Both the position numbers and the translations under genes were made by a program. 64,000 nt of DNA from Candidatus Forterrea multitransposorum CG_2015-17_Forterrea_25_41 (GTDB lineage: Archaea > Iainarchaeota > Iainarchaeia > Iainarchaeales > CSSED10-239): NCBI GenBank assembly GCA_009392915.1, contig CP045477.1, positions 1-64,000 of the forward strand, written 5' to 3'. Shown piece after piece: positions 13,752 through 47,465 of this stretch (its first letter is position 1; every line of letters starts with the position of its first letter). The notes beneath the pieces were generated by a model that did not search any database, was not told where the DNA came from, and worked only from the letters and a program-made list of their open reading frames with translations.

Positions 13752-15299
13752 ATGGTCTTTAAAGAAAATGAACTTGGAATTGTTGTTTCAACAATGGATT
13801 CACCTTCAACTTCAAAGATCACTTTTGTTTGTACCAAAAAAGTTTATAAAGGACAGTATGTTCAAATAGAATACTCTCAAGGTAGTTTAATTGGGCTTGT
13901 AACAGATGTATCTTCTCAGAATAGATATTTTGAAAATAATGAATCTGTAAAAGAATTTGAAAGTTCTGATTATAATATCAATGATCAATTTCCAACTAGT
14001 GATTGGGAATTTTTAATTGCAAATATAAAGCCTTTAGGGGTTCTTTCAAAAGAAAATTTTTTTGTAAGATCTACTCTTCCAGTATCTCCTGGTTCAAAAG
14101 TTTTAATTTGTGAAAAAGAAGTTTTATTTAAATTTCTTCATTTAAAAAAGAATGGACTTAATCTTGGACAAATTGAATTTCCTACTCTTCCTGTTACTTT
14201 TTGTATGGATAGACTTTTACAAAAACATTTAGCAATTTTAGCACAGTCTGGGGCAGGAAAAAGTTATTTAACCTCTGTTGTTTTAGAAGAACTTTTAGAC
14301 AGAACTAAAGAAGAAGGGCAAGTTGCAATTTTATTATTTGATGTTCATGGAGAGTATTCTCATTTTTCACACCCTATAAAAGATTCTTCTCAACATAAAG
14401 ATTATTCTTCAAAGACAATAAAGATTAATTCTTTTGAAATAAAGATTGGAGTTTCTACTCTTTCTTTAAATTTCTTTTCATCTCTTTTACCTTCTTTAAG
14501 TTCTGCACAAAAACGTGAACTTGGAAGTGTTTTAAAAAAATTAAATGAAGATAAAAAAAATGGTTTAGGTCCTTTTGATCTAAAAGACATTATTAAAGAA
14601 ATTGAAAGACAAGAAGTTAAAGAAAATGTTTCAAAACCTTTAATTAATGCTTTAGGTGAACTTTTAGATTATCATCTTTTTGCAAAAATAGATTCACCTT
14701 CAATTTTTGATATTGTAAAACCTGGAAAATTAACCATTATTGATTTATCTAGAGAGATAAATCTTAAAAAGAAACAATTAATACTTTATTATTTTGCACA
14801 TAAACTTTTTTACTCAAGAACAAATCCTTCTTTAAATGTACCTCCATTCCTTTTAGTTGTTGAAGAAGCCCATCAATTTGCTCCAGAAAGTGCAAGTAAA
14901 GATAGAGCTATGGCAAAATCAATTTTAGAAACTATTGCAAGAGAAGGTAGAAAGTTTGGATCTTGTCTTTGTTTAATTTCTCAAAGACCTGTAAAATTAT
15001 CTACCACTGTGCTTTCACAGGCAAACACACATATAATTTTAAGAATAACTAATCCTTATGACTTAAAACATATAGGAGAATCATCTGAAGGACTTGATTC
15101 TAAATCAGTAGAAATGATAACTTCTTTAAGAGTTGGAGAGGCTTTAGTTGTTGGTGAAGCTTCATCTTATCCTGTGTTTTTTAAAGTTAGAAAAAAATAT
15201 TCTCAAGATTCTCATTTAGATGTTTCTCTTTCAGGGCTTGCTAAAAATTATTTAAAAAATACTTCTAATCAAGAGAAAGATATTGAAGGCTTTTTATAG
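13752..15299 (+). CDS. herA: HerA-type DNA helicase/translocase ATPase
   Basis: HAS-barrel N-terminus, Walker A AQSGAGKSY, Walker B LLVVEEAHQF, and LISQRPVKLSTTVLSQANT of the HerA/FtsK superfamily. Confidence 0.75.
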   Translation: MVFKENELGIVVSTMDSPSTSKITFVCTKKVYKGQYVQIEYSQGSLIGLVTDVSSQNRYFENNESVKEFESSDYNINDQFPTSDWEFLIANIKPLGVLSKENFFVRSTLPVSPGSKVLICEKEVLFKFLHLKKNGLNLGQIEFPTLPVTFCMDRLLQKHLAILAQSGAGKSYLTSVVLEELLDRTKEEGQVAILLFDVHGEYSHFSHPIKDSSQHKDYSSKTIKINSFEIKIGVSTLSLNFFSSLLPSLSSAQKRELGSVLKKLNEDKKNGLGPFDLKDIIKEIERQEVKENVSKPLINALGELLDYHLFAKIDSPSIFDIVKPGKLTIIDLSREINLKKKQLILYYFAHKLFYSRTNPSLNVPPFLLVVEEAHQFAPESASKDRAMAKSILETIAREGRKFGSCLCLISQRPVKLSTTVLSQANTHIILRITNPYDLKHIGESSEGLDSKSVEMITSLRVGEALVVGEASSYPVFFKVRKKYSQDSHLDVSLSGLAKNYLKNTSNQEKDIEGFL

Positions 15300-16297: not shown

Positions 16298-18844
16298 GTG
16301 TTTTTTATGGATGATGCAAATTTAATGCTTTTAAAAAAGAAAGTAAAAGCTATAAAACAATATAAAGGCCAAGGTACTCAACTTATAAGTCTTTATCTTC
16401 CACCTGATGCAGATAGAAGTTCTGCAACAAAACAATTAACTGATGAAATGAGTCAATCTTCAAATATTAAGAGTGCTCAGACTAGAAAAAATGTACAAGC
16501 AGCTTTAAAAAGAATTATTAATTATTTAAAACAAATTGATTTTAAACTTCCTGAAACAGGTTTAGTTTTATTTTCTGGAGATGTTTCAACTAATCCTTCT
16601 AAATCAGATGTAATTTTACTTGCAATTGCACCTCCTGTAAGACTTACAACTAAGCTTTATTGGTGTGATTCAACATTTCACATAGCTCCTTTAGAAGATA
16701 TGGCACAAACAGATGATGTTTATGGTTTAGTTGTTCTTGACAAACGAGAAGCAACAGTTGCTATTTTAAGAGGAAAATCTAAAGAAATTCTTTTTTCAGA
16801 AACCTCAAATGTTCCTGGTAAAACAAAAGCCGGGGGGCAATGTTTAAAAGATGCTTTTGTATCTTTATCTGATGGGAATTTAATAGATGTTAGTGAAATT
16901 TCTAAAAAGGATATTCTTTCTTCTATGAATTTTAAACAAAATAAATTAATTAATTCTAAGGTTTTAGATAATTGGTCAGTTTCTAAAAATAAAACATATA
17001 TTATTAAAACAAAAGCTCCTGGTACAGAAATAAAAGCTAGTGAAGATCATATATTTTTTGTTTTAACTCCAGATGGTGTTGTTGAAAAAGCTTCAAAAGA
17101 TTTAACTTTAAATGATTATTTGTTATTTCCAGAAAAATTATCTTATAAAAATAAAATTTGGTCTTTTGATACTAAAAAATATATTTCTAAATTAAATAAA
17201 CCTTCTATAAAGATACCTATAAAACTTAATAATGTATTTGCTAAATTTTTAGGTTATTTATTAGGTGATGGTTCTATTGAAACTGATAGATTAACTTTTT
17301 ATGAATCTAGAAAAGATGTTATTTTAGAATATAAAAAGTTATTTGATAAATATTTTAATGTAAATTCTTCTTTAACTTTTAGAGATTCTAAAAATTATTA
17401 TCAATTAAGAGTTAATTCAACTGCTCTTGTAAGATTAATTAAAGAAGAATTTAAGGAAATTAAAAAAGCAAGAGATTCTTTAATACCTTCTAAAATATTA
17501 ACTTCTTCTAATAAAATATTAGCTAATTTTTTAAAAGGATTTTATGATGCTGAAGGTTATATTAATACTTCTAGAAAATCAATAGATATTGGAATAAATA
17601 ATAAAAAAATTGCACAACAACTTCAATTATCATTATTAAGATTTTCAATTATTGGATCTTTACAAGAATATGATAATAAACAAAATCCTTATACAAATAA
17701 CCATAGGTTTGTGATTTCAATTTCTGATAAAGAGTCAATAGATTCTTTTGAAAAAAATATTAATTTTACTTCTTTTGAAAAGCAAAAAAAAATAAAAAAA
17801 ATTCAAAAATTAAAAACAAACATGAGTTTCTCAAGAACACTTCCTGTATATGGTAGTCAGGTTAGATCTGTTGTTACAAAACATGGTTATAATTTAGAAC
17901 TTTTCCCAAAAGTGAGTAGTTTTTTCAATAATAATAGAATGCTTAGTAAATGCTTTTTTAAAAGTTCTGTTTTAGATTATGTTAAAGATAAATCTCTTTT
18001 AAAAGATTTAATTAAATTTTATAATATGCCATTTTTTGCTGCAAAGATAAATTCTATATTTATTGAAAAAAAGAAAACAATTATGACAGACATTTCTGTT
18101 GCTAATAAATCTTTTATTGCAAATGGATTAATTGTTCATAATTCAGCACATAGATTCGAAAGACTAAGAGATAAATATGAAGAAGAGTTTTATAAGAGAG
18201 TAGGTTCTAAAGTAAATACTGCTTTTGTAGATCTTGATAATTTTAAAGGAATGATTGTTGGTGGTCCTGGACTTACTAAAAATGAATTTTTAGAAATTGG
18301 TGATTTAGACCACAGAATAAAAGATAAAGTTTTAGGAACTGTAGATACTTCTTATACAGATGAGTCAGGTATAAAAGAAGTTTTAGATAAATCTGAAGAT
18401 ATTTTAAAAGAAACTGGTTTAGTTCATGAAAGAAAATTAATTAATAAGTTTTTTGAAGACTTAGCAAAAACAGGCCTTGCAAATTATGGTTTTCAAGATG
18501 TAATTGATGCCTTAAATATTGGTAAAGCTTCAACTGTTTTAGTGTCTGAAGGTTTAGAATGGACTGTTTTAATTTTTAAATGTTTATCAGACAAATCTAG
18601 ATTTATAAAAATTGTTAAAGATAAACATGAAGTTTCTGATACTATCTCAAAATTTGAAAATTCTCCAACAGATTGTCCAGAAGGTAAAGCAGAACTTGTT
18701 GAAGAAGTTGATATATATGATTATTTTATAGATATTTCTAAAAATACAAGTGCAAAAGTTGAACTTATTTCTATTGAAACTTTAGAAGGTAAACAATTTT
18801 TTGAAACTTTTGGAGGGCTTGCAGCTTTCTTAAGATATAGGTAA
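16298..18844 (+). CDS. prf1: Peptide chain release factor aRF1 interrupted by an in-frame intein
   Basis: The exteins (181 + 233 aa) have the aRF1 architecture, including the catalytic GGQ followed by SAHRFERLR. A 434-aa insertion begins with Cys and ends with His-Asn, followed by Ser. Confidence 0.8.
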   Translation: MFFMDDANLMLLKKKVKAIKQYKGQGTQLISLYLPPDADRSSATKQLTDEMSQSSNIKSAQTRKNVQAALKRIINYLKQIDFKLPETGLVLFSGDVSTNPSKSDVILLAIAPPVRLTTKLYWCDSTFHIAPLEDMAQTDDVYGLVVLDKREATVAILRGKSKEILFSETSNVPGKTKAGGQCLKDAFVSLSDGNLIDVSEISKKDILSSMNFKQNKLINSKVLDNWSVSKNKTYIIKTKAPGTEIKASEDHIFFVLTPDGVVEKASKDLTLNDYLLFPEKLSYKNKIWSFDTKKYISKLNKPSIKIPIKLNNVFAKFLGYLLGDGSIETDRLTFYESRKDVILEYKKLFDKYFNVNSSLTFRDSKNYYQLRVNSTALVRLIKEEFKEIKKARDSLIPSKILTSSNKILANFLKGFYDAEGYINTSRKSIDIGINNKKIAQQLQLSLLRFSIIGSLQEYDNKQNPYTNNHRFVISISDKESIDSFEKNINFTSFEKQKKIKKIQKLKTNMSFSRTLPVYGSQVRSVVTKHGYNLELFPKVSSFFNNNRMLSKCFFKSSVLDYVKDKSLLKDLIKFYNMPFFAAKINSIFIEKKKTIMTDISVANKSFIANGLIVHNSAHRFERLRDKYEEEFYKRVGSKVNTAFVDLDNFKGMIVGGPGLTKNEFLEIGDLDHRIKDKVLGTVDTSYTDESGIKEVLDKSEDILKETGLVHERKLINKFFEDLAKTGLANYGFQDVIDALNIGKASTVLVSEGLEWTVLIFKCLSDKSRFIKIVKDKHEVSDTISKFENSPTDCPEGKAELVEEVDIYDYFIDISKNTSAKVELISIETLEGKQFFETFGGLAAFLRYR
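16841..18142 (+). mobile_element. Intein with a LAGLIDADG homing-endonuclease domain inserted in aRF1 between Gln181 (of GGQ) and Ser
   Basis: N-terminal Cys, C-terminal VHN with a +1 Ser, and two LAGLIDADG-type blocks (FLGYLLGDGS and LKGFYDAEGYI). Confidence 0.75.
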
Positions 18845-23625: not shown

Positions 23626-24737
23626 AATTGTGTTGCATAACTCTTTTTAAAAGTATTGTCTAACCTATTTTATTACTAGATAAAGGAGGTTAGACAATAT
23701 GAATATTAAGAACGAAAAGATTAATAAAAGGAACTGGTCAAAGATAAATTATGGAAAAACAAGACAAATCTTGTTTTTACTAGATAAAAACATTATTTTT
23801 AGTGAAAATGAAAGACTAGTTTCCCAAAATAAAAACAAACCAGGAAGACAATTTATATATAGTGATAGAATAATAGAACTATTAATTGATCTTAAAAATT
23901 ATTTTAAATTTGATTATCGTAAACTACAGGCATTCTGCCTGTTGTTTAATAATGTTATAAAAATAAAAACACCTGACTTTACAACTATTTGTAGAAGAAT
24001 GCACAAATTAGAATTATTTCTAAAAAATATAAAAACAAAAAAAGAACCAACCTTTATAGCTATAGATGGTTCTGGACTTCAAACTACTAATCGAGGAGAA
24101 TGGCTTAGATTAATACACAAAAAAGGAAAAATAAACTTAAGAAATGGATTTGTAAAATTAGTGATTGCAACAGATGTTGCATCTGGAGAAATAACTGGAG
24201 TGTATATTTCAGATGATTCTGATTTTGAAAATAAAAGCTTATCAGATTTATTATACCAAACAATAAATAATCAAAACCAAGAAGTCAAAGGACTTCTTGG
24301 AGATGGGGCATACGATTCTTATGATAACTTTGATATGCTTGATGATATGGGAATAAAACCAATTATCAAAATCAGAAAGAATGCAATTACAACAGAACCT
24401 AATGACGATTATTTAAAAAGAAGAAGAAAACTTGGAAAAAAGAAAAAAATAAAAAGAATTGAAGTTGCAAAAAAGCAACTTAAAAATGTAGATGACTGGA
24501 AACAAAAAAATGAGTATAATAAAAGGTGGGTTGTTGAATACACGTTTAGTGTATTCAAAAGACTATTCGGACATAGTGTGTACTCTAAAAGAAAGAAATA
24601 TGTCAAAAATGAAGTAATTTCTAAAGTAAATTTGTATAATAAATTATTAAATATCAATTAAGAAAAAAATAAAATGAATTAAAAAAAGAAATAAGCTAAA
24701 AATATTGTGTAAAACACAATATTTGTGCAACACAATT
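23626..24737 (+). mobile_element. IS5-family-like insertion sequence
   Basis: Perfect 12-bp terminal inverted repeats aattgtgttgca at 23626-23637 and, reverse-complemented, at 24726-24737, extendable to ~17 bp. They flank a single DDE transposase ORF. Flanking T-rich sequence is consistent with an ~8-bp target duplication (ttttttat). Confidence 0.65.
23699..24661 (+). CDS. DDE transposase (IS5/IS4 superfamily)
   Basis: Catalytic blocks IAIDGSG, LGDGAYDS and VVEYTFSVFKRLFG, the E-containing block typical of IS5-family transposases. Confidence 0.65.
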   Translation: MNIKNEKINKRNWSKINYGKTRQILFLLDKNIIFSENERLVSQNKNKPGRQFIYSDRIIELLIDLKNYFKFDYRKLQAFCLLFNNVIKIKTPDFTTICRRMHKLELFLKNIKTKKEPTFIAIDGSGLQTTNRGEWLRLIHKKGKINLRNGFVKLVIATDVASGEITGVYISDDSDFENKSLSDLLYQTINNQNQEVKGLLGDGAYDSYDNFDMLDDMGIKPIIKIRKNAITTEPNDDYLKRRRKLGKKKKIKRIEVAKKQLKNVDDWKQKNEYNKRWVVEYTFSVFKRLFGHSVYSKRKKYVKNEVISKVNLYNKLLNIN

Positions 24738-24818: not shown

Positions 24819-26192
24819 ATGGCTATAGACAAAAGATTTTTTTTAGGGATAACTATTAGTAAAAAAAGAAAAGCAATTTCTCCTTTAATTGCCACTATTC
24901 TTTTAATAGTTGTTGCCGTTGCAATTATAGCTATTATTGTTTCCTGGGGAAAAGGATTTACCAATGATTCTTTAAGCAAAGCCTCTGGTCTTGAAATTTA
25001 CACTGAATCAGAAACTTCTTTTTACTTGCAAGTAAAAAATTCAATAAACGGAAGAACTGTTGTTCAATATAATCCTCCTTATAATTCTCCTCACACCTCT
25101 TTAACCATAACAGGTTATAGCCTACATGGTAACACGAATATTAATCCCATAGATCCACCAATTACAATAACTGCAAACCAAACTGCAGTTATTGATCATG
25201 GTATTTTATTTCCAGAATTAAATTTAGTTTTATATTTGGATAATGATCGAATGATTATTAAAACTGATCTTTTACAAACTATTAAATCTCCTCTTTCTTG
25301 TCCAGAAGGTTATGTTTCTGTTCCAGGAAACCACTTATATGGAACTATGAATGAAAGTGGGGGTTTTTGTGTTTCAAAATATGAGATGAAAATGGATAGA
25401 ACAGGAGATGGAATAGGAAATCTTGTAGCTGATTATCCTGATTGTAACACCGGTTCTTTAACATATAATACTTATAGTTATGAATTATGCCCTACACCAG
25501 GCACTTTAGTTTCTACTCCAGAAGGTTCTCCCATAGCAAGAATCACACAAACTGAAAGCATATCAGCCTGTGAAGCTATTGGTGGTCATTTAATAACAAA
25601 TAACGAATGGATGACCATTGTACGAAACATAGAACAAGTTCCATCTAATTGGTCAGGTGGAGCAGTTGGTGATGGCTACCTTCCAAGAGGGAATTCATCT
25701 TCTTCAGGAGCTATGGAAGGCTTTGATCAACTTTCAGGAACTACCAAAAGAACCTTGACCTTAACAAACGGAGAGGTAATTTGGGATTTAGCAGGAAATG
25801 TAAGACAATGGACCAGTGACACTATTCAAAGAAAGGACCAGCCTGATGGTTTTAATAATGTAGATGATAGTAATAATACTTCTGGTTTTAATTGGTTTGA
25901 TTATTTTAAGGGCGGTGGAGTAGATCAATATATTTATTCTGATAATTTAGGTAACACCACCTTAAAGTATAAAGATTTATTTTTATTAACTAGTAATACT
26001 TATAATGCAACAGATAATGGTGTTGGAAGGATTTATACTTATAGTGATTTTAGTGATACTAGTACAACTGAGTACGCGTTTTTGCGCGGTGGTCACTGGG
26101 GCAATGGCACTAATGCCGGGGTCTTGCACCTGGTCTTGAACAAGACTCCTGGGTCCCGGAGCATCCTCATCGGCCTGCGCTGTGTCAAGTAG
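24819..26192 (+). CDS. DGR target (variable) protein: pilin-like surface protein with a C-terminal FGE/C-type-lectin-fold domain
   Basis: N-terminal class III signal/archaeal pilin-like segment KKRKAISPLIATILLIVVAVAI. FGE/DUF1566-type motifs GGHLITNNEWMTIV, GNVRQWTSD, and a C-terminal FLRGGHWGNG...GLRCVK coinciding with the VR repeat. Confidence 0.8.
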   Translation: MAIDKRFFLGITISKKRKAISPLIATILLIVVAVAIIAIIVSWGKGFTNDSLSKASGLEIYTESETSFYLQVKNSINGRTVVQYNPPYNSPHTSLTITGYSLHGNTNINPIDPPITITANQTAVIDHGILFPELNLVLYLDNDRMIIKTDLLQTIKSPLSCPEGYVSVPGNHLYGTMNESGGFCVSKYEMKMDRTGDGIGNLVADYPDCNTGSLTYNTYSYELCPTPGTLVSTPEGSPIARITQTESISACEAIGGHLITNNEWMTIVRNIEQVPSNWSGGAVGDGYLPRGNSSSSGAMEGFDQLSGTTKRTLTLTNGEVIWDLAGNVRQWTSDTIQRKDQPDGFNNVDDSNNTSGFNWFDYFKGGGVDQYIYSDNLGNTTLKYKDLFLLTSNTYNATDNGVGRIYTYSDFSDTSTTEYAFLRGGHWGNGTNAGVLHLVLNKTPGSRSILIGLRCVK

Positions 26193-26195
26193 TTT
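26075..26195 (+). repeat. DGR variable repeat (VR) at the 3' end of the target gene
   Basis: The 121-bp GC-rich segment matches 27300-27420 at 108 of 121 positions. 12 of the 13 mismatches correspond to adenines in the other copy. Confidence 0.85.
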
Positions 26196-26498
26196 TTAGA
26201 AAAAATATATTTCATCCCCAAACCATGTATTTAGACGGGTGAGACGGCAAGACGGCCAGACGGAAGAAGCCATGGCAACCTAAACGTTTCAAGATTGTTT
26301 TTGCAAAAAAATGAAAAAACGTATTTGTGAAGTTTTAAAAAAAAGAAATGAGTGTGATTTTTGCAAATTTTTTTGATTTTTTTCAAAAAAATTTGCTAGC
26401 CGTTAAACCAAATGGTTTTTTAATGTAAAAATAATTTTTATAATAATTAAGTTTTAAAGAAAAAATACTTTATATCTTGGACAAACAATGTGATTTAA

Positions 26499-26885
26499 AT
26501 GAGTTTAGTTGGAAATGAAAAAGGAATTCTAAATTTTGGTGTTTACAAGGAGCTTTTCCCAATCGTTATTGAAACTTATAATTTTTTAGAAAATAATAAA
26601 TCTTTATTTAAAGTAGATTTTGTTTATACAGATACTGTTAAAAATTTAATAGATATTCTTTCTTTTCTTTCCAAAGGGTATAATAAATTTCATTCTAATG
26701 AAAAATCTTTACTTTACTCTTATTCAAGAGATTGTGTTTCTACAACCCAATCTAATCTTTTAATATTATCTGAACTTAATAAAGATCTCTCAAAAGAAAA
26801 AACCTTATATTTTTATAATCAATTTGAGGATAAAATAAAGTATTTTAATGGTTTAATAAAAAAGATTGAAGAAAATAAAAACTAG
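26499..26885 (+). CDS. Hypothetical protein located between the DGR target and avd
   Basis: 128-aa ORF of unknown function within the DGR cassette. Confidence 0.3.
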   Translation: MSLVGNEKGILNFGVYKELFPIVIETYNFLENNKSLFKVDFVYTDTVKNLIDILSFLSKGYNKFHSNEKSLLYSYSRDCVSTTQSNLLILSELNKDLSKEKTLYFYNQFEDKIKYFNGLIKKIEENKN

Positions 26886-26896
26886 GGTATATTATT

Positions 26897-27226
26897 ATGT
26901 TATTTGACTTAAAGTTATATAAAGAAACTTATAACTTTTTACTTTATATTTATCCTGAAATAAATAAATTCCCTAAATCAGATAAATATTCTTTAGGAGA
27001 GGATATTAAAAAAACAACTATTTCTTTAATGTCAAATATTGTTCTTTTTTCAAAGCATAATGAAAATACTTTAAAAGAAGCAGATAAAAACTTAGAATTA
27101 CTAAGAATATATATTAGGCTTTCTTTTGATTTAAAAATAATCTCTTTTAAAAAATATGAGGTTATTTCAAGGCAATTAAATGATATTGGTAATTTATTAG
27201 GTGGTCTTTTAAAACAAAAGATTTAA
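26897..27226 (+). CDS. avd: DGR accessory variability determinant (Avd)-like four-helix-bundle protein
   Basis: 109 aa with the pattern FPKSDKYSLGEDIKKTTISLMSNI, reminiscent of the bAvd/23S-rRNA-intervening-sequence protein family. It is positioned immediately upstream of TR. Confidence 0.6.
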   Translation: MLFDLKLYKETYNFLLYIYPEINKFPKSDKYSLGEDIKKTTISLMSNIVLFSKHNENTLKEADKNLELLRIYIRLSFDLKIISFKKYEVISRQLNDIGNLLGGLLKQKI

Positions 27227-27299
27227 ATATTTTTTCAACTAATAGTTATGTTGTTCTTTTAAATAAAAAGAATAGGGCTTTTACAGAAAAAAACAGGTG

Positions 27300-27420
27300 C
27301 GCGTTTTTGCGCGGTGGTAACTGGAACAATGGCACTAATGCCGGGGTCTTGAACCTGAACTTGAACAATACTCCTGGGAACCGGAACAACAACATCGGCC
27401 TGCGCTGTGTCAAGTAGTTT
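27300..27420 (+). repeat. DGR template repeat (TR)
   Basis: Intergenic 121-bp copy of VR, adenine-rich in AAC codons, located between avd and the RT gene. Confidence 0.85.
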
Positions 27421-27422
27421 CT

Positions 27423-27445
27423 CCTTATTATTTTTAATAATAAGG
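27423..27445 (+). other. Perfect 10-bp stem hairpin immediately downstream of TR
   Basis: ccttattatt-ttt-aataataagg. Confidence 0.4.
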
Positions 27446-27678
27446 TTTTATCAGAGTTTGTATGTTTATTTTTTTATCTAAAAAAACATATAAAGCGAAT
27501 ATTTTAAAAAACTACATCTGTAAAATGTTTCCTGATTGCACATAATGTGTGCCATAAGAACTATTTTGTTTTTATGTTAAAAAATCAAATATAAAGATAA
27601 GTTATTACATTTAGTATTTTTATAGTCTGTAAAAAGAAATCTGTAATAACTCTTAACTTTAAATAAGGCTTTTTAAAA

Positions 27679-28695
27679 ATGAAATCATACAATAACCTTT
27701 GGCAAGAATTCACTTCTTTTAAAAATATTTTTAATGCCTATAAAAAAGCAAGAAAGTCCACACCAAACAAAAAGTATATCTTGCAATTTACCACAAATTT
27801 AGAAAAGGAGTTATTCTTATTACAAGATCAATTAATTTCAGAAAATTTTCAATTTTCTCCTTACAGAAGTTTTAAAGTTTATGAACCTAAAGAAAGAACA
27901 ATAAGTGCACCTATTTTCAGGGATGTTGTTGTTCAGCATGCCATAATAAACATTATTGAACCTATTTTTGATAAAACCTTTATAGATAACTCTTTTGCTT
28001 GTAGAAAAGGAAAAGGCACACATAAAGGGCTTTTTGAAATTAAAAAAGTAATTCAAACCCCAAATCATCCAAAATACTATTTAAAACAAGATGTAAAGAA
28101 ATACTTTCCTTCAGTTCATAAACCTACCTTAAAAGAAATAATTTTTAAAAGAATTAAGGATGCAAGATTACTTTCTCTAATATATAAAATAATTGATAGT
28201 TATTCTTTTGATTTAAATCAAATTCAAAAAGGTATCCCTATAGGTAATTTAACCTCTCAGTTGTTTGCAAATATTTATTTAAACCATTTAGATCAGTATG
28301 TTAAGCATTCTTTAAAAATTAAACATTATTATAGATATGTAGATGATTTTTTAATATTTTCAAACAATAAAAGAAAATTACATGTTTTTAGAAGAAAAAT
28401 AAAATTATTTTTAAGTAAAGAACTATTATTAGATGTTCCAAAAAATAAAACTTATATAAACTTAGTAAGTAAAGGAGTTGATTTTTTAGGTTATAAGGTA
28501 TTTCCTTCAAACATAAGATTAAGAAAATCAAATCTTAAAAGATTTCTTCTAAGACAAAATAAAAATAACTTTCTTCTAAAAAAAAATCAAATTTCTAAAC
28601 TTAACTATAATTTTTCTCTTTTTTCTTTTTTAGGTTATGCAAAGCATGCAAACTCTTATAATCTCTTAAGTACTTTAAATATTAATGAGTTATAG
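27679..28695 (+). CDS. DGR reverse transcriptase
   Basis: RT motifs FRDVVVQHAI, the DGR-diagnostic motif 4 PIGNLTSQLFANIYLN (IGxxxSQ), and motif 5 YYRYVDDFLIF (YxDD). 338 aa; adjacent to TR. Confidence 0.85.
   Translation: MKSYNNLWQEFTSFKNIFNAYKKARKSTPNKKYILQFTTNLEKELFLLQDQLISENFQFSPYRSFKVYEPKERTISAPIFRDVVVQHAIINIIEPIFDKTFIDNSFACRKGKGTHKGLFEIKKVIQTPNHPKYYLKQDVKKYFPSVHKPTLKEIIFKRIKDARLLSLIYKIIDSYSFDLNQIQKGIPIGNLTSQLFANIYLNHLDQYVKHSLKIKHYYRYVDDFLIFSNNKRKLHVFRRKIKLFLSKELLLDVPKNKTYINLVSKGVDFLGYKVFPSNIRLRKSNLKRFLLRQNKNNFLLKKNQISKLNYNFSLFSFLGYAKHANSYNLLSTLNINEL
28589..28687 (+). repeat. 99-bp direct repeat, copy 1 (3' end of the RT coding sequence)
   Basis: Near-identical to 30138-30236. Confidence 0.8.
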
Positions 28696-28838: not shown

Positions 28839-30104
28839 ATGGATAAAGCTTTTTTAAGAAACGTTGTTTCTGACCAGTATGAAGATTTAAAAGATGTTTC
28901 AAAAACAATACAAAGATATGATTCAAAAGAAATAGCGCGCTTTGTAAATAATCCTGCTATATCTATAATTTCAGGAGTAAGGCGTTGTGGTAAGTCCACT
29001 TTTTTAGAGCAGATAATAAATTTATATTATAAAAATAACTTTTATTATTTTGATTTTTCTGATGAAAGAATTGCAAAATTTGAAACTGCTGACTTTCAAA
29101 CATTATATGAGGTGTTTTTAGAAAAATTTGGAAAAAGACAGGCTTTTTTCTTTGATGAAATACAAGGAGTTCCAGAATGGAATAAATTTGTTAATAGAAT
29201 GAAAAAGATTGGGCATAAATGTTTTGTAACCGGTTCAAATTCAAATTTGTTAAGTCAAGAAATATCTACTTATCTAACAGGAAGACATATTGATAAAATC
29301 TTATTCCCTTTTTCCTTTAAAGAATATTTAACGTATAAAAATATTAATGTAGATTTAGATTCTACAAAATCAAGAACCTTAATTATTAAAGAGTTTAAAA
29401 ATTACTTTAAAATAGGTGGTTTTCCAGAGGTTGTTTTAACAAACGATACTTCAATTTTATTAAATATTTATTCTGACATAATTTCTAAAGATATAATTGA
29501 AAGATTTAGGATTAATGATGTTTCTTTATTTAAAGAATTTTGTAATTATGTAATTTCTTTATCTACGAATGAATTTACTTTTAAATCATTAAAAGATAAT
29601 TTTAATATTCAGAATATTACTACTGTTTCAAACTATCTTGATTATCTTAAATTAACTTACCTTGTTTATGAAGTTAAAAGATTTTCTTCTTCATTACAAA
29701 AATTAAATAAATATCCAAAAAAATATTATTGTATAGATAATGGTTTATTAAATAAAGTGGGTTTTGGATATTCAATAGAGGAAACTAGATTTTTAGAAAA
29801 TCAAGTTTTTATTGAACTTTGGAGAAATAATCCGCAATCTGAAATTTATTATTATAGAGATAAGGATAATAAAGAATGTGATTTTTTATTGTTAAATGAT
29901 AGAAAAGTAGTTAAGGCTATTCAAGTGTGTTTTGCTTTTAAAAAGATAGATACTAGAAAAAGAGAAATAGAAGGTTTACTATCTGCTTTAAAAGAGTTTA
30001 ATCTAAATTATGGCGAAATTATTACTTTTGAGCATAAAGAAAAATTAAAGATAGATGGAAAAGTAATAGAGATGATTCCTGTATATGAGTGGTTATTAAA
30101 ATAA
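28839..30104 (+). CDS. DUF4143/COG1373-family AAA ATPase
   Basis: Walker A GVRRCGKST, Walker B FFFDEIQ, and a C-terminal DUF4143-like region. 421 aa. Confidence 0.65.
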   Translation: MDKAFLRNVVSDQYEDLKDVSKTIQRYDSKEIARFVNNPAISIISGVRRCGKSTFLEQIINLYYKNNFYYFDFSDERIAKFETADFQTLYEVFLEKFGKRQAFFFDEIQGVPEWNKFVNRMKKIGHKCFVTGSNSNLLSQEISTYLTGRHIDKILFPFSFKEYLTYKNINVDLDSTKSRTLIIKEFKNYFKIGGFPEVVLTNDTSILLNIYSDIISKDIIERFRINDVSLFKEFCNYVISLSTNEFTFKSLKDNFNIQNITTVSNYLDYLKLTYLVYEVKRFSSSLQKLNKYPKKYYCIDNGLLNKVGFGYSIEETRFLENQVFIELWRNNPQSEIYYYRDKDNKECDFLLLNDRKVVKAIQVCFAFKKIDTRKREIEGLLSALKEFNLNYGEIITFEHKEKLKIDGKVIEMIPVYEWLLK

Positions 30105-30137: not shown

Positions 30138-30236
30138 AAATTTCTAAACTTAACTATAATTTTTCTCTTTTTTCTTTTTTAGGTTATGCAAAGCATGCAA
30201 ACTCTTATAATCTCTTAAGTACTTTAAATATTAATG
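30138..30236 (+). repeat. 99-bp direct repeat, copy 2 (intergenic)
   Basis: Near-identical copy of the RT 3' end, downstream of the ATPase gene. Confidence 0.8.
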
Positions 30237-41013: not shown

Positions 41014-44000
41014 ATGTCCGTAGAGAAATATAAAGCAACAAATGATAAAGATTTATTTGATGAAGTAGAATCTTCTAATAGAAAGTATGTTAATGAAGAT
41101 ACTATTAAAGATATTGAAGATAAATTAAAAAAATCAAGAGAAGAACATCCTTTAGAAGATGTTGAAAATTTTTCTGAAATTGATGATTCTGAAGATGATG
41201 ATTCTGAAGATGATGATAACTTAGATGAAGTTGATTTAGAAGAAAACTCTGAAGATGAAAATTCAGAAGATAATAATTCAGAAGATAATAATTCAGAAGA
41301 TAATAATTCAGAAGATAATAATTCAGAAGATAATAATTCAGAAGATAATAATTCAGAAGATAATAATTCTGAAGATAATGATATAGATGAAGCTGATTTA
41401 GAAGAAGACTCTGAAGATAATAATTTAGAAGAAGATAATGTTGAAAAAGACCTAAATGAAATTGATTCTAAAGAATCAGATTTAAAAGAAGATTTTACTA
41501 AAAACTCAAATATATCAAAAGAGATTACTAAAGATAAAGATATACCTGCTAAAAGTTCAGAAATTATAATTAAACCAGCACTTAAATTCTTAGAAGATTT
41601 ACAAGACCCTAATGTAGTTTATTTAGGTAGAAAAAAATCTGTTTTAAAACAATATGGAAAGATAGCTACAGCATATATAGGAAAAGTTGCTGAAAATCAA
41701 CAAGAAGGCAAACAAGTTAACATAGATGGTCTAAATCCACACGTTATTTTCTTAGATGGTGCTAGAGGAACAGGTAAGAGTTATCTTTTAGGGGTAATAG
41801 CAGAAGAGCTTGCAAGAACAAACCCATATATAGGGCAAATAGTAATTGATCCTGTAGGTGTTTTCTGGTCAATGAAATTTCCAAACAGAGATTCAAAAGA
41901 ATTAAAAATTTTAGAAGAATGGGGTTTAAAGGCAGAAGGTCTTAAAAACTTAAAAGTCTTTGTTCCAGAAGGTATAGTTTCTCAAGTTTCAAAAGATACT
42001 TATGATGACACTTTTTCAATGTTTCCTTCTCTTTTAACTCCAGAAGATTGGTGTTTAACTTTTGGTATTGAAAGATTTTCTCCATCAGGCTTACTTTTAG
42101 AAAAAACTTTAGAGTCTGTAAAGAAAGGATATGTTACAGGTGGAACAAAAGATGTTCCTGATGTTAAAAAAATATCAGCAAAAGGAAATCATTTTACTTT
42201 AGAAGATATTATTAACTGTCTTCAAAACAATTCTGAATTTCAATCTTCTCAAAAAGGTTATAAACCAGATTCTATAAGAGCTTTAGTTTCAAGATTTGAA
42301 GCTGCAAGATCTTGGGGTATATTTTCAGATTCTGGAACTCCTCTTTCAAAACTTTCAAGAGAAAATCAATTAACTGTGCTTGATACTTCTTTTTTAGATG
42401 AAAATATTACTGCTTTAGTTATTGGTATTTTAGCTAGAAGAATTCTTTCTGCAAGAAAACTTCTTGCAAGACAAGAAGCTGTTAAAAAATATGGTGATTC
42501 AACACAAAAAGCAGAAGAACTTTTAGAAATTGAAATTCCTCCAACATGGATGTATATTGATGAAGCACACACTTTAATTCCTTCTGGAAATTCTCAAACA
42601 CCAGCAACTGCAGGAATTATAGAGTATGTTAAGCAAGGAAGAAGACCTGGTTGTTCTTTAGTTTTTGCAACACAACAGCCTTCTGCAATAAACACTAAAG
42701 TTTTATCACAAGTTGATATATTAATCTCAAATAAATTAGTTTTTAATGATGATATTTCTGCAATTCAAAAAAGAATGCCTGCAATAATACCAAAGCAATA
42801 TAAAGAACCAAATTTTATAAAGACTTTGCCTTTTGCAACTGCTCTTGTAGGAGATAGATCAGAAGAAACTTCTAGAGCTTTTATTTTAAGAGCAGCACCA
42901 AGAAGATCTCAACATGAAGGTCGTGATGCAGAAACAATTAGAGAGATTCCTAAAAAAAATAAATCTGAAGTTTTAGAAATTGCTTTTAAAATGGTTTATG
43001 AAAAATTAGAAAAAACAAAAGAAATTAAAGTGTCTTTTGCAAAAGATATTTTAGATGTTATTAATATTAAATATAGAGGAACTGTTGAATATGATGAACT
43101 TTTAGAAAAACTTTTAGAAAAAAATGTTTTACTTAAAGAAGATCTTCTATATCTTAATGAAAATTTTTTCAAAGAATATAATCAAGAAGAAAAATTAGTT
43201 TCTAATGATTCCGAAAATACTGATGAAATAAATTCTTTAGATGAAAATGAGCTTGAAAATATTGAAGAAAATTTAGAACATGTTAAAAGTAGTGTTTCAA
43301 AAGTAAAAGTAAGAAATACTATTGCAGAAAGAATTTCAAAAGCAAATATTGAAGAAATTGCAAATCAAAATATTAAAAAATCTTTATTATTTAAACCAAA
43401 AGAAGAAATTTTAAATATTGTTTTAAAATATAGAACAATTTATAAAATAAGTTATAATGTTTATGATTCACAAGATTCTTTTAAGACAAATACTTGTTTT
43501 GTGGATTCTGTAACTGGTGAGTTTATACATTTTTTAAATGGAGAGTTTAAGATTTCTTCTGGTTTAAATGTTTTAGATAAAATTAATGAAGATTATTTAG
43601 AGATTCTTTATCTTTTAAATAAACAACATACTTTGTTTTCTTTAAATCAAGAAACAGATATTGAAGAAAAAGATTTAATTGAAATGATTGATTCTTTTAA
43701 AGAATTAAATTTAATTACTGTTAAAAATAATTCTGGTATAGATGTTTATAAAATAGATTCAAAAGCTTTTGATATTCCTTTTAACCCGACTATTAAAGTT
43801 CTTTCATCTTTAGATGTTTTACCTTTAAAAAAACAAGATGTTGAGTTTTTAGAATCAATAAACTATTCTTTAAATGTTATTCAAGATAATTTAAAGAAAT
43901 TATGGGGTGAAATTGAATTTACTTCTCTTCAAGAAATCTATTGGCCAATTTGGCAAATTACTTATAATAATAAAGAAGGAAATAGAGTTTTAAAAGTAGA

Positions 44001-44025
44001 TGCTGTAACAGGCAAAAAAATGTGA
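41014..44025 (+). CDS. Large HerA/FtsK-superfamily ATPase with an acidic repetitive N-terminus and a long C-terminal extension
   Basis: Walker A GARGTGKSY, Walker B MYIDEAHTL, and ATQQPSAINTKVLSQVDILISN mirroring the HerA motif. The N-terminus has (SEDNN)n repeats. 1003 aa. Confidence 0.6.
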   Translation: MSVEKYKATNDKDLFDEVESSNRKYVNEDTIKDIEDKLKKSREEHPLEDVENFSEIDDSEDDDSEDDDNLDEVDLEENSEDENSEDNNSEDNNSEDNNSEDNNSEDNNSEDNNSEDNNSEDNDIDEADLEEDSEDNNLEEDNVEKDLNEIDSKESDLKEDFTKNSNISKEITKDKDIPAKSSEIIIKPALKFLEDLQDPNVVYLGRKKSVLKQYGKIATAYIGKVAENQQEGKQVNIDGLNPHVIFLDGARGTGKSYLLGVIAEELARTNPYIGQIVIDPVGVFWSMKFPNRDSKELKILEEWGLKAEGLKNLKVFVPEGIVSQVSKDTYDDTFSMFPSLLTPEDWCLTFGIERFSPSGLLLEKTLESVKKGYVTGGTKDVPDVKKISAKGNHFTLEDIINCLQNNSEFQSSQKGYKPDSIRALVSRFEAARSWGIFSDSGTPLSKLSRENQLTVLDTSFLDENITALVIGILARRILSARKLLARQEAVKKYGDSTQKAEELLEIEIPPTWMYIDEAHTLIPSGNSQTPATAGIIEYVKQGRRPGCSLVFATQQPSAINTKVLSQVDILISNKLVFNDDISAIQKRMPAIIPKQYKEPNFIKTLPFATALVGDRSEETSRAFILRAAPRRSQHEGRDAETIREIPKKNKSEVLEIAFKMVYEKLEKTKEIKVSFAKDILDVINIKYRGTVEYDELLEKLLEKNVLLKEDLLYLNENFFKEYNQEEKLVSNDSENTDEINSLDENELENIEENLEHVKSSVSKVKVRNTIAERISKANIEEIANQNIKKSLLFKPKEEILNIVLKYRTIYKISYNVYDSQDSFKTNTCFVDSVTGEFIHFLNGEFKISSGLNVLDKINEDYLEILYLLNKQHTLFSLNQETDIEEKDLIEMIDSFKELNLITVKNNSGIDVYKIDSKAFDIPFNPTIKVLSSLDVLPLKKQDVEFLESINYSLNVIQDNLKKLWGEIEFTSLQEIYWPIWQITYNNKEGNRVLKVDAVTGKKM
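41251..41372 (+). repeat. 15-bp coding tandem repeat (about 7-8 copies of gaagataataattca)
   Basis: Directly visible; encodes the SEDNN repeats in the N-terminus of the large ATPase. Confidence 0.85.
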
Positions 44026-45398: not shown

Positions 45399-47465
45399 AT
45401 GTTTTGGTTTTCTTTTTTATATATGTATCTTAATAAAAATGCTATTTCTCCATTAATAGCAAGCATTTTAATTATTGTTGTAGTTGTTGCAGTTATTGGT
45501 GTGATTCTATTATGGGGTAAAAACTTTACAAATGAAAGTTTAACTTCCACTTATACTTTTTCACAAGATAAAACTGTTTCTGATTTTGTTTGGCAAGATG
45601 ATATTACTGGTAAAAATCTTTTTATAAAAAACACACATATATCATTAAGTAAAACTATTATTGGTTATAAAATAAACAGTTCCTTAGATTATGCTTATCT
45701 TAATAAATATCATTATCTTGATGAATCTTTTTTATTATCTAAAAATTCCATTGCTCAATTAACTTTAGGTTGTGTTCCAGAAAAGAATTTTTCAATTGAA
45801 CTTTTAACAGACTCTAATGAATATATTTCTTTTCCTGTCACTTCTAAGTTTTTTGATCCTTCAGAATGTACTTTTTCTTTTTCAATAACTTCTCCTTTGG
45901 AAAATTCAATCAATGCTTTAAATTCTAGTATTTCATTTACTTCTGAAATTTTAAATTCTTCAGGTACTCCTTCTTGTACTTGGATTTCTTCAATTGATGG
46001 TACTTTTTCAACATCTTGTGATGCAACTTATTCTTCTTTATCTTCTGGTTCTCATGATATTAATTTAGTTGTTGAAGATTCTGGTGATATTTTAACACAA
46101 TCAACTTCAATTATTGTAAAAGATTCTTTAGAAAGTATTATTTCTACTCCTTCAAATTCATCAAATCATTTATTTAGTGATACAATTTCATTTAGTGGTA
46201 CTGCAGATAATAATTTTGGTTCTCACACTTGTTCTTGGACTTCTTCTTTAGATGGTTCTCTTTCAAGTGATTGTAGTTTTAGTTCTAGTTTATCTCCAGG
46301 CACACATACTATTACTTTACAAGTAACTGATTCTCTTGAAACAGCATCTTCAAATATTTCTATAGATGTTTATGCTTTATTAGTTGCTTCTGTTTCTCTT
46401 CCTGCTAATAATTCTACAAAATCTTTAGGAAGTCCTATCTCTTTTTCATCAAGCATTTCTGGAGGCGATGGATCTTATTCTTGTAGTTGGACAGATAATG
46501 GTTCTCCTTTAAGTTCTAGTTGTTCATTTAGTCATACTTATCCACAAGGAAGTTGGTCTGAATATCAAGATATGCCTCAAGGTAGAGATTATCATGATTG
46601 TGTAGGTGTTGGTGATAAACTATATTGTTTTGGAGGAGATGATTCTACTTATAATGTAGAAAGAACTACTCAAATTTATAATTCTACAACAAATACTTGG
46701 TCTTTAGGTGCAAATATGCCTGCAGATAGAGAGCTTCCAGCATGTAGTTATTATAATGGAATAATTTATTGTATAGGAGGATTTAATAGTTCTTGGGATT
46801 ATGTTAATTCAAATTATGCTTATAATATTTCTACAAATTCTTGGTCTAGTAAAACTTCTATGCCAACAGTAAGAGCTGAACATGATTGTACTGCCTTAGA
46901 TGGAAAAATTTATTGTTTTGGTGGAAATAAAGATGGTGGAGGTGCAAGTAATCTTCTTGAAATATATAATATTTCAACAAATTCTTGGTCAACAGGTACA
47001 AGTTCACCTTCAGGAAAAGCAAATCATAATTGTGAGGGTTTAAATAATAAGGTTTATTGTATTGGTGGTACAACTACTACTTTAATATATGATGTTTTAT
47101 CTGATTCATGGTCTACAGGTACAACTATCTCAACATCAAAATCATCTGGAGCTTCTGATTTATATGGTACTAAAATTTATTATGGAGGAGGTTCTTCTGC
47201 TGCACTTTTAGTTTACGATACTGTTTTAAATAGTTGGTCAACTCTTGCTAGTTTACCTTATTCTAACAGATCTTATATAGGTTGTGGAATTGCAGATAAT
47301 ACTTTTTATTGTGCAGGAGGAGATTCAAGTCAAGGTAGAGAAACATACATGGATAAATTACATGGATATTCTATAGGTGCTACAGGAACACATGAAATTG
47401 AATTAAATGTAAGTGATGGTTATGGTCAAACTGCTTCTAATACAATAAATATTAATGTTCAATAG
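45399..47465 (+). CDS. Secreted pilin-like surface protein with Cys-containing repeats and a C-terminal Kelch-repeat beta-propeller
   Basis: N-terminal class III signal/pilin-like segment NKNAISPLIASILIIVVVVAVIGVILLWG, which shares the AISPLIA...IVV segment with the DGR target. Repeated SC(S/T)WTSS.DGS blocks, and about 6 Kelch-like repeats (YCFGG / YCIGG). Confidence 0.55.
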   Translation: MFWFSFLYMYLNKNAISPLIASILIIVVVVAVIGVILLWGKNFTNESLTSTYTFSQDKTVSDFVWQDDITGKNLFIKNTHISLSKTIIGYKINSSLDYAYLNKYHYLDESFLLSKNSIAQLTLGCVPEKNFSIELLTDSNEYISFPVTSKFFDPSECTFSFSITSPLENSINALNSSISFTSEILNSSGTPSCTWISSIDGTFSTSCDATYSSLSSGSHDINLVVEDSGDILTQSTSIIVKDSLESIISTPSNSSNHLFSDTISFSGTADNNFGSHTCSWTSSLDGSLSSDCSFSSSLSPGTHTITLQVTDSLETASSNISIDVYALLVASVSLPANNSTKSLGSPISFSSSISGGDGSYSCSWTDNGSPLSSSCSFSHTYPQGSWSEYQDMPQGRDYHDCVGVGDKLYCFGGDDSTYNVERTTQIYNSTTNTWSLGANMPADRELPACSYYNGIIYCIGGFNSSWDYVNSNYAYNISTNSWSSKTSMPTVRAEHDCTALDGKIYCFGGNKDGGGASNLLEIYNISTNSWSTGTSSPSGKANHNCEGLNNKVYCIGGTTTTLIYDVLSDSWSTGTTISTSKSSGASDLYGTKIYYGGGSSAALLVYDTVLNSWSTLASLPYSNRSYIGCGIADNTFYCAGGDSSQGRETYMDKLHGYSIGATGTHEIELNVSDGYGQTASNTININVQ

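Follow-up and report, generated by a model that had tools for sequence, protein, structure and literature searches.

When a diversity-generating retroelement (DGR) is found in an archaeal genome, what kind of protein does it diversify, and where on the cell would the variable product be displayed? We address this for a 64,000-nucleotide stretch of Candidatus Forterrea multitransposorum (contig CP045477.1, positions 1 to 64,000; hereafter the window), an AT-rich sequence of about 25% G+C, in which a first-pass annotation had placed a DGR target in an open reading frame (ORF) encoding 457 residues, with boundaries that we recovered exactly. A protein identical to this target is recorded as NCT58966.1, on an 839,632-bp contig. 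The evidence presented below makes it quite probable that the target is a modular archaeal type IV pilin-like protein with a DGR-diversified lectin-fold head, and suggests that it acts as a variable adhesin, borne either by the cell surface or by a pilus. The two-module architecture and both folds are documented here.

The target belongs to a complete DGR, with the order target, ORF128, Avd, template repeat (TR) and reverse transcriptase (RT), as summarized in Table 1. The variable repeat (VR) and the TR form a 121-nt pair with 13 mismatches, of which 12 lie at TR adenines even though adenines account for 30 of the 121 nt (hypergeometric P = 8e-8 for the mismatch bias); the thirteenth lies at a TR T (26144), where the window reads G (N442K). 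Read in the frame of the VR, the TR encodes CAFLRGGNWNNGTNAGVLNLNLNNTPGNRNNNIGLRCVK followed by a stop codon. Fifteen of its codons up to residue 451 contain adenine (426, 428, 429, 431, 432, 437, 439, 441, 442, 443, 446, 448, 449, 450 and 451, spanning nt 26094-26171); being 12 AAY, two ACT and one ATC, they permit up to 8.3e15 protein variants with no stop codon arising. The [ILV]GxxxSQ motif, a form of which is found in the RT, is diagnostic of DGR-type reverse transcriptases, and homologs of this RT adjoin related targets in many loci.

Table 1. Features of the DGR cassette, of the target protein and of its Kelch-repeat paralog (positions are those of the window)
Feature	Coordinates	Strand	Basis
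Target gene, 457 aa, DGR-diversified, archaeal pilin-like with C-terminal C-type-lectin (CLec)-fold variable domain	24819..26192	+	ORF list
Predicted class III signal-peptide leader, residues 1-19 (MAIDKRFFLGITISKKRKA)	24819..24875	+	Register with mature pilins; homolog leaders
Hydrophobic N-terminal alpha-helix, residues 20-55 (ISPLIATILLIVVAVAIIAIIVSWGKGF...)	24876..24983	+	AlphaFold2 helix 22-55; TIGR02537 match 17-47; profile alignment with 8fk7_A
Globular beta-sandwich within the pilin module, about residues 62-152	25002..25274	+	
C-type-lectin/FGE-fold ligand-binding domain (predicted), about residues 158-457	25290..26189	+	
VR	26075..26195	+	Repeat and mismatch analysis
ORF128, accessory gene conserved in the archaeal DGR cassette, 128 aa	26499..26885	+	Same position in relatives
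Avd accessory protein	26897..27226	+	Pfam bAvd, 76.8 bits, E = 2.2e-21
TR	27300..27420	+	Repeat analysis; identical in contigs L084-L086
DGR RT, 338 aa, motifs IGNLTSQ and YVDD	27679..28695	+	Pfam RVT_1, 77.5 bits; motifs from translation
Paralogous modular pilin-like protein, not diversified by the DGR: shared N-module followed by PKD and Kelch beta-propeller	45399..47465	+	N-module similarity; Kelch and PKD Pfam matches

Comparison among samples showed where the protein varies. Within the 90%-identity cluster of the target, three full-length variants from different metagenome-assembled genomes (MAGs; P0001, P0121 and P0122) were identical over residues 1-425 and differed at adenine-templated codons only. 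At the nucleotide level, two near-identical contigs from other samples (L084 and L085) differed from the window at 18 positions across the 3.9 kb from 24819 to 28695, and all 18 fell within 26094-26169, inside the VR, with the TR identical. Fourteen of these differences were at TR adenines, three were synonymous changes at TR C, and one was at the TR-T site mentioned above, where it is the window that departs from the others. With the differences from sample to sample confined to the VR and the TR unchanged, the DGR is shown to be active in nature, its diversification in situ being adenine-specific and restricted to the VR while the TR is kept constant. Together with the adenine-specific repeat pair, the Avd and the RT, this confinement bears out the identification of the gene as a DGR target. 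The non-adenine differences in the VR (26108, 26117, 26130 and 26144) are TR-C changes in the variant contigs and a TR-T change in the window, and suggest that bases other than A are misincorporated at a low level and then sifted by selection, or else that ordinary mutation is at work.

The export and display part of the protein was found in its N-terminal third. The 457-residue translation starts MAIDKRFFLGITISKKRKAISPLIATILLIVVAVAIIAIIVSWGKGF, and its N-terminus, which includes ...SKKRKAISPLIATILLIVVAVAIIAIIVSWGKGF, had been likened to class III signal sequences of archaeal pilins. This likeness is upheld by the NCBIfam model TIGR02537 (arch_flag_Nterm), which scored above its cutoff over residues 17-47 (24.1 bits against 20, E = 1.9e-5), though the corresponding Pfam family, Pilin_N, remained sub-threshold, as discussed below. 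In a PDB-wide search with residues 1-156, using a profile of 18 family members, the top matches were archaeal type IV pilins only, headed by 8fk7 (P. calidifontis pilus, E = 1.7e-6) and followed by 8rey, 8fj5, 9myg, 8gi2 (Natrinema PilA2) and the Ignicoccus Iho670 filament. Residue 1 of the mature chains of 8rey_M ('VSPIIATILL...') and of Iho670 (3j1r/5kyh) aligned with I20 of the target, an alignment that predicts cleavage by a prepilin peptidase or class III signal peptidase at A19/I20, that is, between KKRKA and ISPLIAT. In keeping with such a site, the segment KKRKA followed by ISPLIATILLIVVAVAIIAIIV presents a basic leader, a small residue at position -1 and a hydrophobic helix, and the leaders of the homologs are basic, of about 7-20 residues, and precede [GAS][IVL][SE]P. 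A pilin-like globular beta-sandwich comes after the helix. Given the PDB matches and the register at I20, this region of about 150 residues is therefore a whole archaeal type IV pilin-like module and more than a signal sequence. The target also carries 11 N-glycosylation sequons, two of them inside the VR, and six Cys, five of which are conserved; the sequons, the conserved Cys and the presence of AglB in the window are consistent with an extracellular location.

The rest of the protein forms the variable head. Its lectin-fold domain takes up two thirds of the protein (about residues 158-457) and not, as first described, the C-terminal third. The FGE/DUF1566-type assignment made for it stood in its first half: the quoted motifs GGHLITNNEWMTIV, GNVRQWTSD and FLRGGHWGNG are present, and residues 234-366 matched Pfam FGE-sulfatase (PF03781) at 29.5 bits (E = 7.4e-7), over a gathering score of 23.3. 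For the second half there was no direct match, DUF1566/Lcl_C (PF07603) finding nothing on the target at E <= 1; the same profile matches one homolog (P0017) at 29.8 bits, below the model cutoff of 34.9. Structure prediction, proposed in the first-pass annotation as a check together with a mapping of the variable residues, returned a CLec/FGE three-dimensional fold for the domain, the AlphaFold2 model of the target (69 homologs) having a mean pLDDT (predicted local distance difference test) of 88.3 and a pTM (predicted template-modelling score) of 0.83. As to the mapping, phmmer aligned target residues 419-454 with the VR of the Thermus aquaticus variable protein TaqVP. Once the TaqVP numbering had been corrected for a tag offset of four residues, eight of the nine TaqVP variable residues (D348, N351, V354, Y361, N364, S368, R370 and G372) corresponded to adenine-templated codons of the target (426, 429, 432, 439, 442, 446, 448 and 450, respectively), while the invariant TaqVP W349 aligned with W427. 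The nine TaqVP residues are all reported to be solvent-exposed (PMC6328139), and the mapping thus agrees, by alignment, with a diversified binding face; on the strength of the fold and of this alignment, the refutations envisaged in the first-pass annotation failed. Moreover, the TR pattern L-N-L-N-L-N sits in the modelled beta-strand 438-442, and this alternation of L and N would therefore place the variable side chains on one face.

On these grounds we propose the following mechanism. A class III signal peptidase would remove the leader at A19/I20, and the pilin module would insert the protein into the membrane with its hydrophobic helix as the anchor. The helix would most likely allow the protein to become part of a type IV filament or of a short pseudopilus; to judge by the modular pilins of bacteria (PMC8179133), it would most plausibly sit at the tip there or be present at low abundance. 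The adjacent DGR would transcribe the TR, and the RT with Avd would copy the transcript into cDNA, random bases entering opposite the template adenines; replacement of the VR by this cDNA would re-randomise the 15 codons on a constant scaffold, so that the population would carry a changing repertoire of surface binding specificities. The diversified CLec face may bind an external ligand, and attachment to a partner cell, a particle or some other target may be the use to which it is put. The DPANN-type host supposed in the first-pass annotation agrees with the closest GTDB representative carrying the target gene, a Candidatus Iainarchaeum MAG (L006, 81% amino acid identity), Iainarchaeota being placed in the kingdom Nanobdellati, that is, DPANN. 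An exact look-up of 53 nt of the target gene among GTDB representative genomes gave no match, and the taxonomic placement therefore depends on L006; the name 'Candidatus ainarchaeum' attached to close homologs, for which the NCBI taxonomy had no entry, we read as a garbled Iainarchaeum. For a DPANN genome of 0.84 Mb host attachment is plausible, and we infer no more than this when we retain the notions, put forward earlier, of a pilus-tip position and of host attachment in an episymbiont.

Several observations weigh against the modular pilin reading. Pfam Pilin_N (PF07790) scored 16.9-19.1 bits on the target, below its gathering score of 25.2, and of the 18 family N-domains it matched 15 (E <= 0.1, best 5e-4) and none at the gathering score. 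Pfam scans of 46 window ORFs found no T2SSE/FlaI ATPase, TadC/FlaJ platform or A24 peptidase, and neither the target nor its paralogs lie in pilus operons. A head of 300 residues is bulky for the body of a filament. The solvent exposure of the variable residues is supported by homology, coming from the TaqVP alignment and not from a computation on the model. Finally, archaeal class III signal peptides are also found on surface proteins that form no filament, for example those of the Sulfolobales bindosome, which has been classed as subsystem 4I of the type IV filaments (TFF; bioRxiv 10.64898/2026.04.22.720090). Some of this would suit a bindosome-like surface receptor lying outside any pilus, in which the class III signal peptide and the pilin-like module would provide anchoring and export only and the head would bind nutrients, particles or cells; the size of the C-terminal module and the lack of pilus assembly genes near the target or its paralogs speak for it. 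Against such a receptor, the target has a complete pilin-like globular beta-sandwich beyond the signal peptide, its CLec module is joined in archaea and in candidate phyla radiation (CPR) bacteria to what appear to be three kinds of type IV pilin N-termini, which fits filament display, and bacterial modular pilins with bulky heads do enter pili (PMC8179133). The genes of the window do not separate filament display from a receptor of this kind, and we regard the latter as the main rival, albeit a rather unlikely one.

Two further explanations leave the display of the protein aside and concern its role. Pili are common virus receptors, and the DGR could serve defence, varying a surface structure that viruses or other parasites use as their receptor and thereby allowing escape; the variation, however, concentrates on the CLec face that canonically binds ligands, as it does in Mtd, TvpA and TaqVP, and is not surface-wide, and the window shows no sign of virus interaction. 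Hence, although this possibility was raised for membrane DGR targets by Roux et al. 2021 (PMC8144416), we judge it improbable here. Still less credible, to the point of being nearly negligible, is an enzymatic role of the SUMF1/EgtB/PvdO (formylglycine-generating) family, the name that NCBI gives to several close homologs: the equivalents of S333 and C336 of the formylglycine-generating enzyme hFGE (D348 and N351 in TaqVP) are the hypervariable H426 and N429 in the target, and the catalytic Cys pair is not conserved (PMC6328139). We thus retain the pilin-like protein with a diversified lectin-fold head as the preferred interpretation.

The N-module is not exclusive to the target. As had been noticed at first pass, it recurs in the Kelch-repeat protein of the window, and we found that the similarity goes beyond the helix and spans the whole N-module of about 140 aa (target residues 17-143 against Kelch protein residues 13-138, 33% identity over 127 residues, E = 6e-13). 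When other copies of the TR 3' end were sought in the window, the VR and the TR alone were found; the DGR therefore has one target there, and the Kelch protein is not one. Elsewhere in the genome, a tandem of three genes with the pilin-like N-module of the target (494, 445 and 617 aa) lies at 6515-11288 of contig L001, which carries the paralog P0044, also present on the 839,632-bp contig. The middle gene is a CLec paralog with 47% identity whose C-terminus resembles a decayed or undiversified VR, with no RT within 8 kb, while the outer two have unrelated C-terminal parts for which no Pfam match was obtained.

The family as a whole is large, with 933 homologs of the target at E <= 1e-3. Among the best 120 of these, in which the N-termini were classified, 83 had an archaeal class III-type N-terminus and six the N-terminus canonical for type IV pilins of bacteria (…GFTLIELLVVIAIIG…), the other 31 being fragments or having Sec-type or other N-terminal regions. 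Automatic annotation already names some members 'flagellin-like' or 'archaellin/type IV pilin N-terminal domain-containing'. In a survey of 78 loci from GTDB genomes, 14 showed the archaeal pilin-CLec architecture, and the order target-ORF128-Avd-RT was kept in four (L007, L009, L011 and L014), down to 41% identity of the target. Eight full-length CPR loci encoded a bacterial pilin N-terminus fused to a CLec domain of the type found in the target; the RT was adjacent in five of these, all of GFTLIELL type, and four of the five also had Avd (L028, L043, L050 and L072, with L048 having the RT only). A bacterial homolog (P0118) and an archaeal one (P0022) had no RT within 8 kb, and therefore not every member of the family lies beside a DGR. 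A few homologs of the CLec module (P0098, P0107, L023 and L080) displayed a different, QxSxE-like N-terminus (…KGQVSLEVIILIG…, …KAQVSTEVVLMIG…), which we take to resemble archaeal pilins of the Epd/DUF361 class; were this the case, pilin N-termini of a third kind would have been fused to the CLec module. This distribution allows a broader idea, which we advance tentatively and do not expect to hold in full: DGR-diversified modular type IV pilins could be a cross-domain class of adaptive adhesins in CPR bacteria and also in DPANN archaea, in which one lectin-fold module, exchanged between them, would have been grafted repeatedly onto archaeal Pilin_N, archaeal QxSxE and bacterial N-methyl pilin modules, ultra-small cells thus showing an antibody-like repertoire on type IV filaments for the capture of hosts or partners.

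Other parts of the cassette deserve a description. ORF128, for which no Pfam or NCBIfam match was obtained, is kept at the same position in five related loci (L007, L009, L010, L011 and L014) at 34-80% identity. It has an ETYNFL motif in common with Avd, and hhalign aligned the two end to end, with a weak match (E = 0.0078, probability 5%); ORF128 is possibly a very divergent Avd-like helical protein. At the 3' end of the VR, where an initiation of mutagenic homing (IMH) site or a hairpin was sought, VR and TR are identical up to 26195 and diverge beyond; the sequence 26190-26300 folded no better than shuffled versions of it (z = 0.98), and an Rfam scan of 26150-27720 gave no match. Just downstream of the VR there is a GC-rich stretch (26216-26285) with four GACGG units about 8-9 nt apart (gacgggtgagacggcaagacggccagacgg), 38 nt of which are conserved in L007. 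The distal end of the cassette is bordered by a perfect 99-nt direct repeat (28589-28687 and 30138-30236) flanking a 1.55-kb segment that contains an AAA_14/DUF4143 ATPase gene (28839-30104). The copy at 28589-28687 forms the 3' end of the RT ORF (ending in NINEL), and that at 30138-30236 falls in a small ORF (ending in NINGFIV); it seems that an element inserted into the RT tail, duplicating the tail and leaving the RT open, and the arrangement is also present in L084-L086. In the two closest GTDB genomes, the counterpart of the window spacer 27421-27678 stands directly after the stop codon of the target (L006, 2686-2952; L008, 5690-5954) and is followed by the RT, with ORF128, Avd and a separate TR missing, a layout that reflects either a real VR-TR recombination with deletion or an assembly collapse of the 121-nt repeat.

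Around the cassette, the window contains archaeal genes for Cdc6, PCNA, primase, GINS, aIF2-alpha, FttA, the CCA-adding enzyme, AglB, Nre, TBP, a proteasome subunit and an intein-containing aRF1. The last (16298-18844, eRF1 domains 1-3) is split by an intein with a LAGLIDADG endonuclease domain. Directly upstream of the target there is the transposase of an insertion sequence (IS) element (23699-24661, DDE_Tnp_1, 320 aa), which L084 has as well. A HerA/DUF87-type ATPase of 1003 aa with a long acidic N-terminal repeat of SEDNN units (41014-44025) is separated by two genes from the Kelch pilin-like gene downstream of it, and a second HerA-like gene is found at 13752-15299.

With regard to the literature, DGR targets with a CLec fold are well known, including those of DPANN (PMC4372165, PMC5006420), as are DGR-varied pilus tip adhesins and bacterial modular type IV pilins; the combination described here is well supported but no surprise in principle. 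In the largest survey, the targets of archaeal (clade 5) and CPR (clade 2) DGRs are described as typically lacking a recognisable transmembrane or other conserved domain, and their membrane binding as something that 'remains to be established' (Roux et al. 2021, PMC8144416). A rare 'GspG-type pilin' domain appears among the DGR targets of one survey; signal peptides and pilins go unmentioned in the papers on archaeal variable proteins, and in the searchable literature (Paul et al. 2017 not covered) no link of DGRs to archaeal or type IV (pre)pilins was found. In the present locus, a clean case with demonstrable activity, a module for export and display can be identified on the target, namely an archaeal type IV pilin; the family of the target runs to hundreds of proteins and has its parallel in CPR bacteria, in a version likewise fused to a pilin. 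In two reports, type IV pili are shown to drive episymbiosis in Saccharibacteria (PMC9894109, PMC11623550). The identifiable pilin module, the CPR parallel and this role of pili therefore make the attachment hypothesis, and with it the function of DPANN and CPR DGRs, directly testable. If true, the cross-domain class would answer the question raised by Roux et al. 2021 of whether the DPANN and CPR targets are surface proteins at all.

The closest comparisons are with other CLec-fold variable proteins, with archaeal pilins and with pilus adhesins of bacteria. The CLec-fold proteins TaqVP of Thermus aquaticus (5vf4), TvpA of Treponema (2y3c) and Mtd of a Bordetella phage (1yu0) are not pilins, TvpA being a lipoprotein and Mtd the tip of a phage tail fibre, whereas the target joins its CLec domain to a module that resembles archaeal type IV pilins and has a predicted class III signal peptide. 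AvpA of Nanoarchaeota (Handa et al. 2016, PMC5006420) is, like our target, a DGR target with a CLec fold from a DPANN archaeon. The paper mentions for it no signal peptide, transmembrane segment or pilin, and AvpA has a short VR of 23 residues and a structure distinct from that of the TaqVP/Mtd/TvpA type, while the VR of the target is of TaqVP type. Like archaeal type IV pilins and other proteins with class III signal peptides (P. calidifontis 8fk7, S. solfataricus 8fjs, Iho670, UpsA and Natrinema PilA2), the target shows the N-terminal motif and a helix together with a small beta-sandwich, and its mature N-terminus aligns in register with theirs, but known structural pilins have about 130-165 residues (300 in Iho670), and the target adds a lectin-fold domain of 300 residues and is diversified by a DGR.

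Among the bacterial systems, the Type V pili of Bacteroides bear DGR-diversified tip adhesins (bioRxiv 2024.11.15.621889) and resemble the target in carrying a DGR-varied CLec-fold head on a pilin-type N-terminal domain and in showing adenine-specific VR changes in natural populations; they are, however, pili of the lipoprotein, strand-exchange kind from Bacteroidota and have no relation to type IV filaments, while the target comes from a DPANN archaeon and is not in a pilus operon. The architecture itself, a small N-terminal pilin module followed by a bulky C-terminal binding module, is that of bacterial modular type IV pilins such as PilB (von Willebrand factor A, vWA, module) and PilC (lectin module) of Streptococcus sanguinis, which have been proposed to show their binding module at the pilus tip (Raynaud et al. 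2021, PMC8179133). The survey of such pilins was restricted to bacterial proteins of IPR012902 (PMC8179133), and in CPR bacteria the CLec module of the target is also found on bacterial N_methyl-type pilin N-termini. The target differs from the described bacterial modular pilins in that its pilin module is of archaeal type (ISPLIAT..., Pilin_N/arch_flag_Nterm) and not of GFTLIE type, and in that the module grafted onto it is hypermutated by a DGR.

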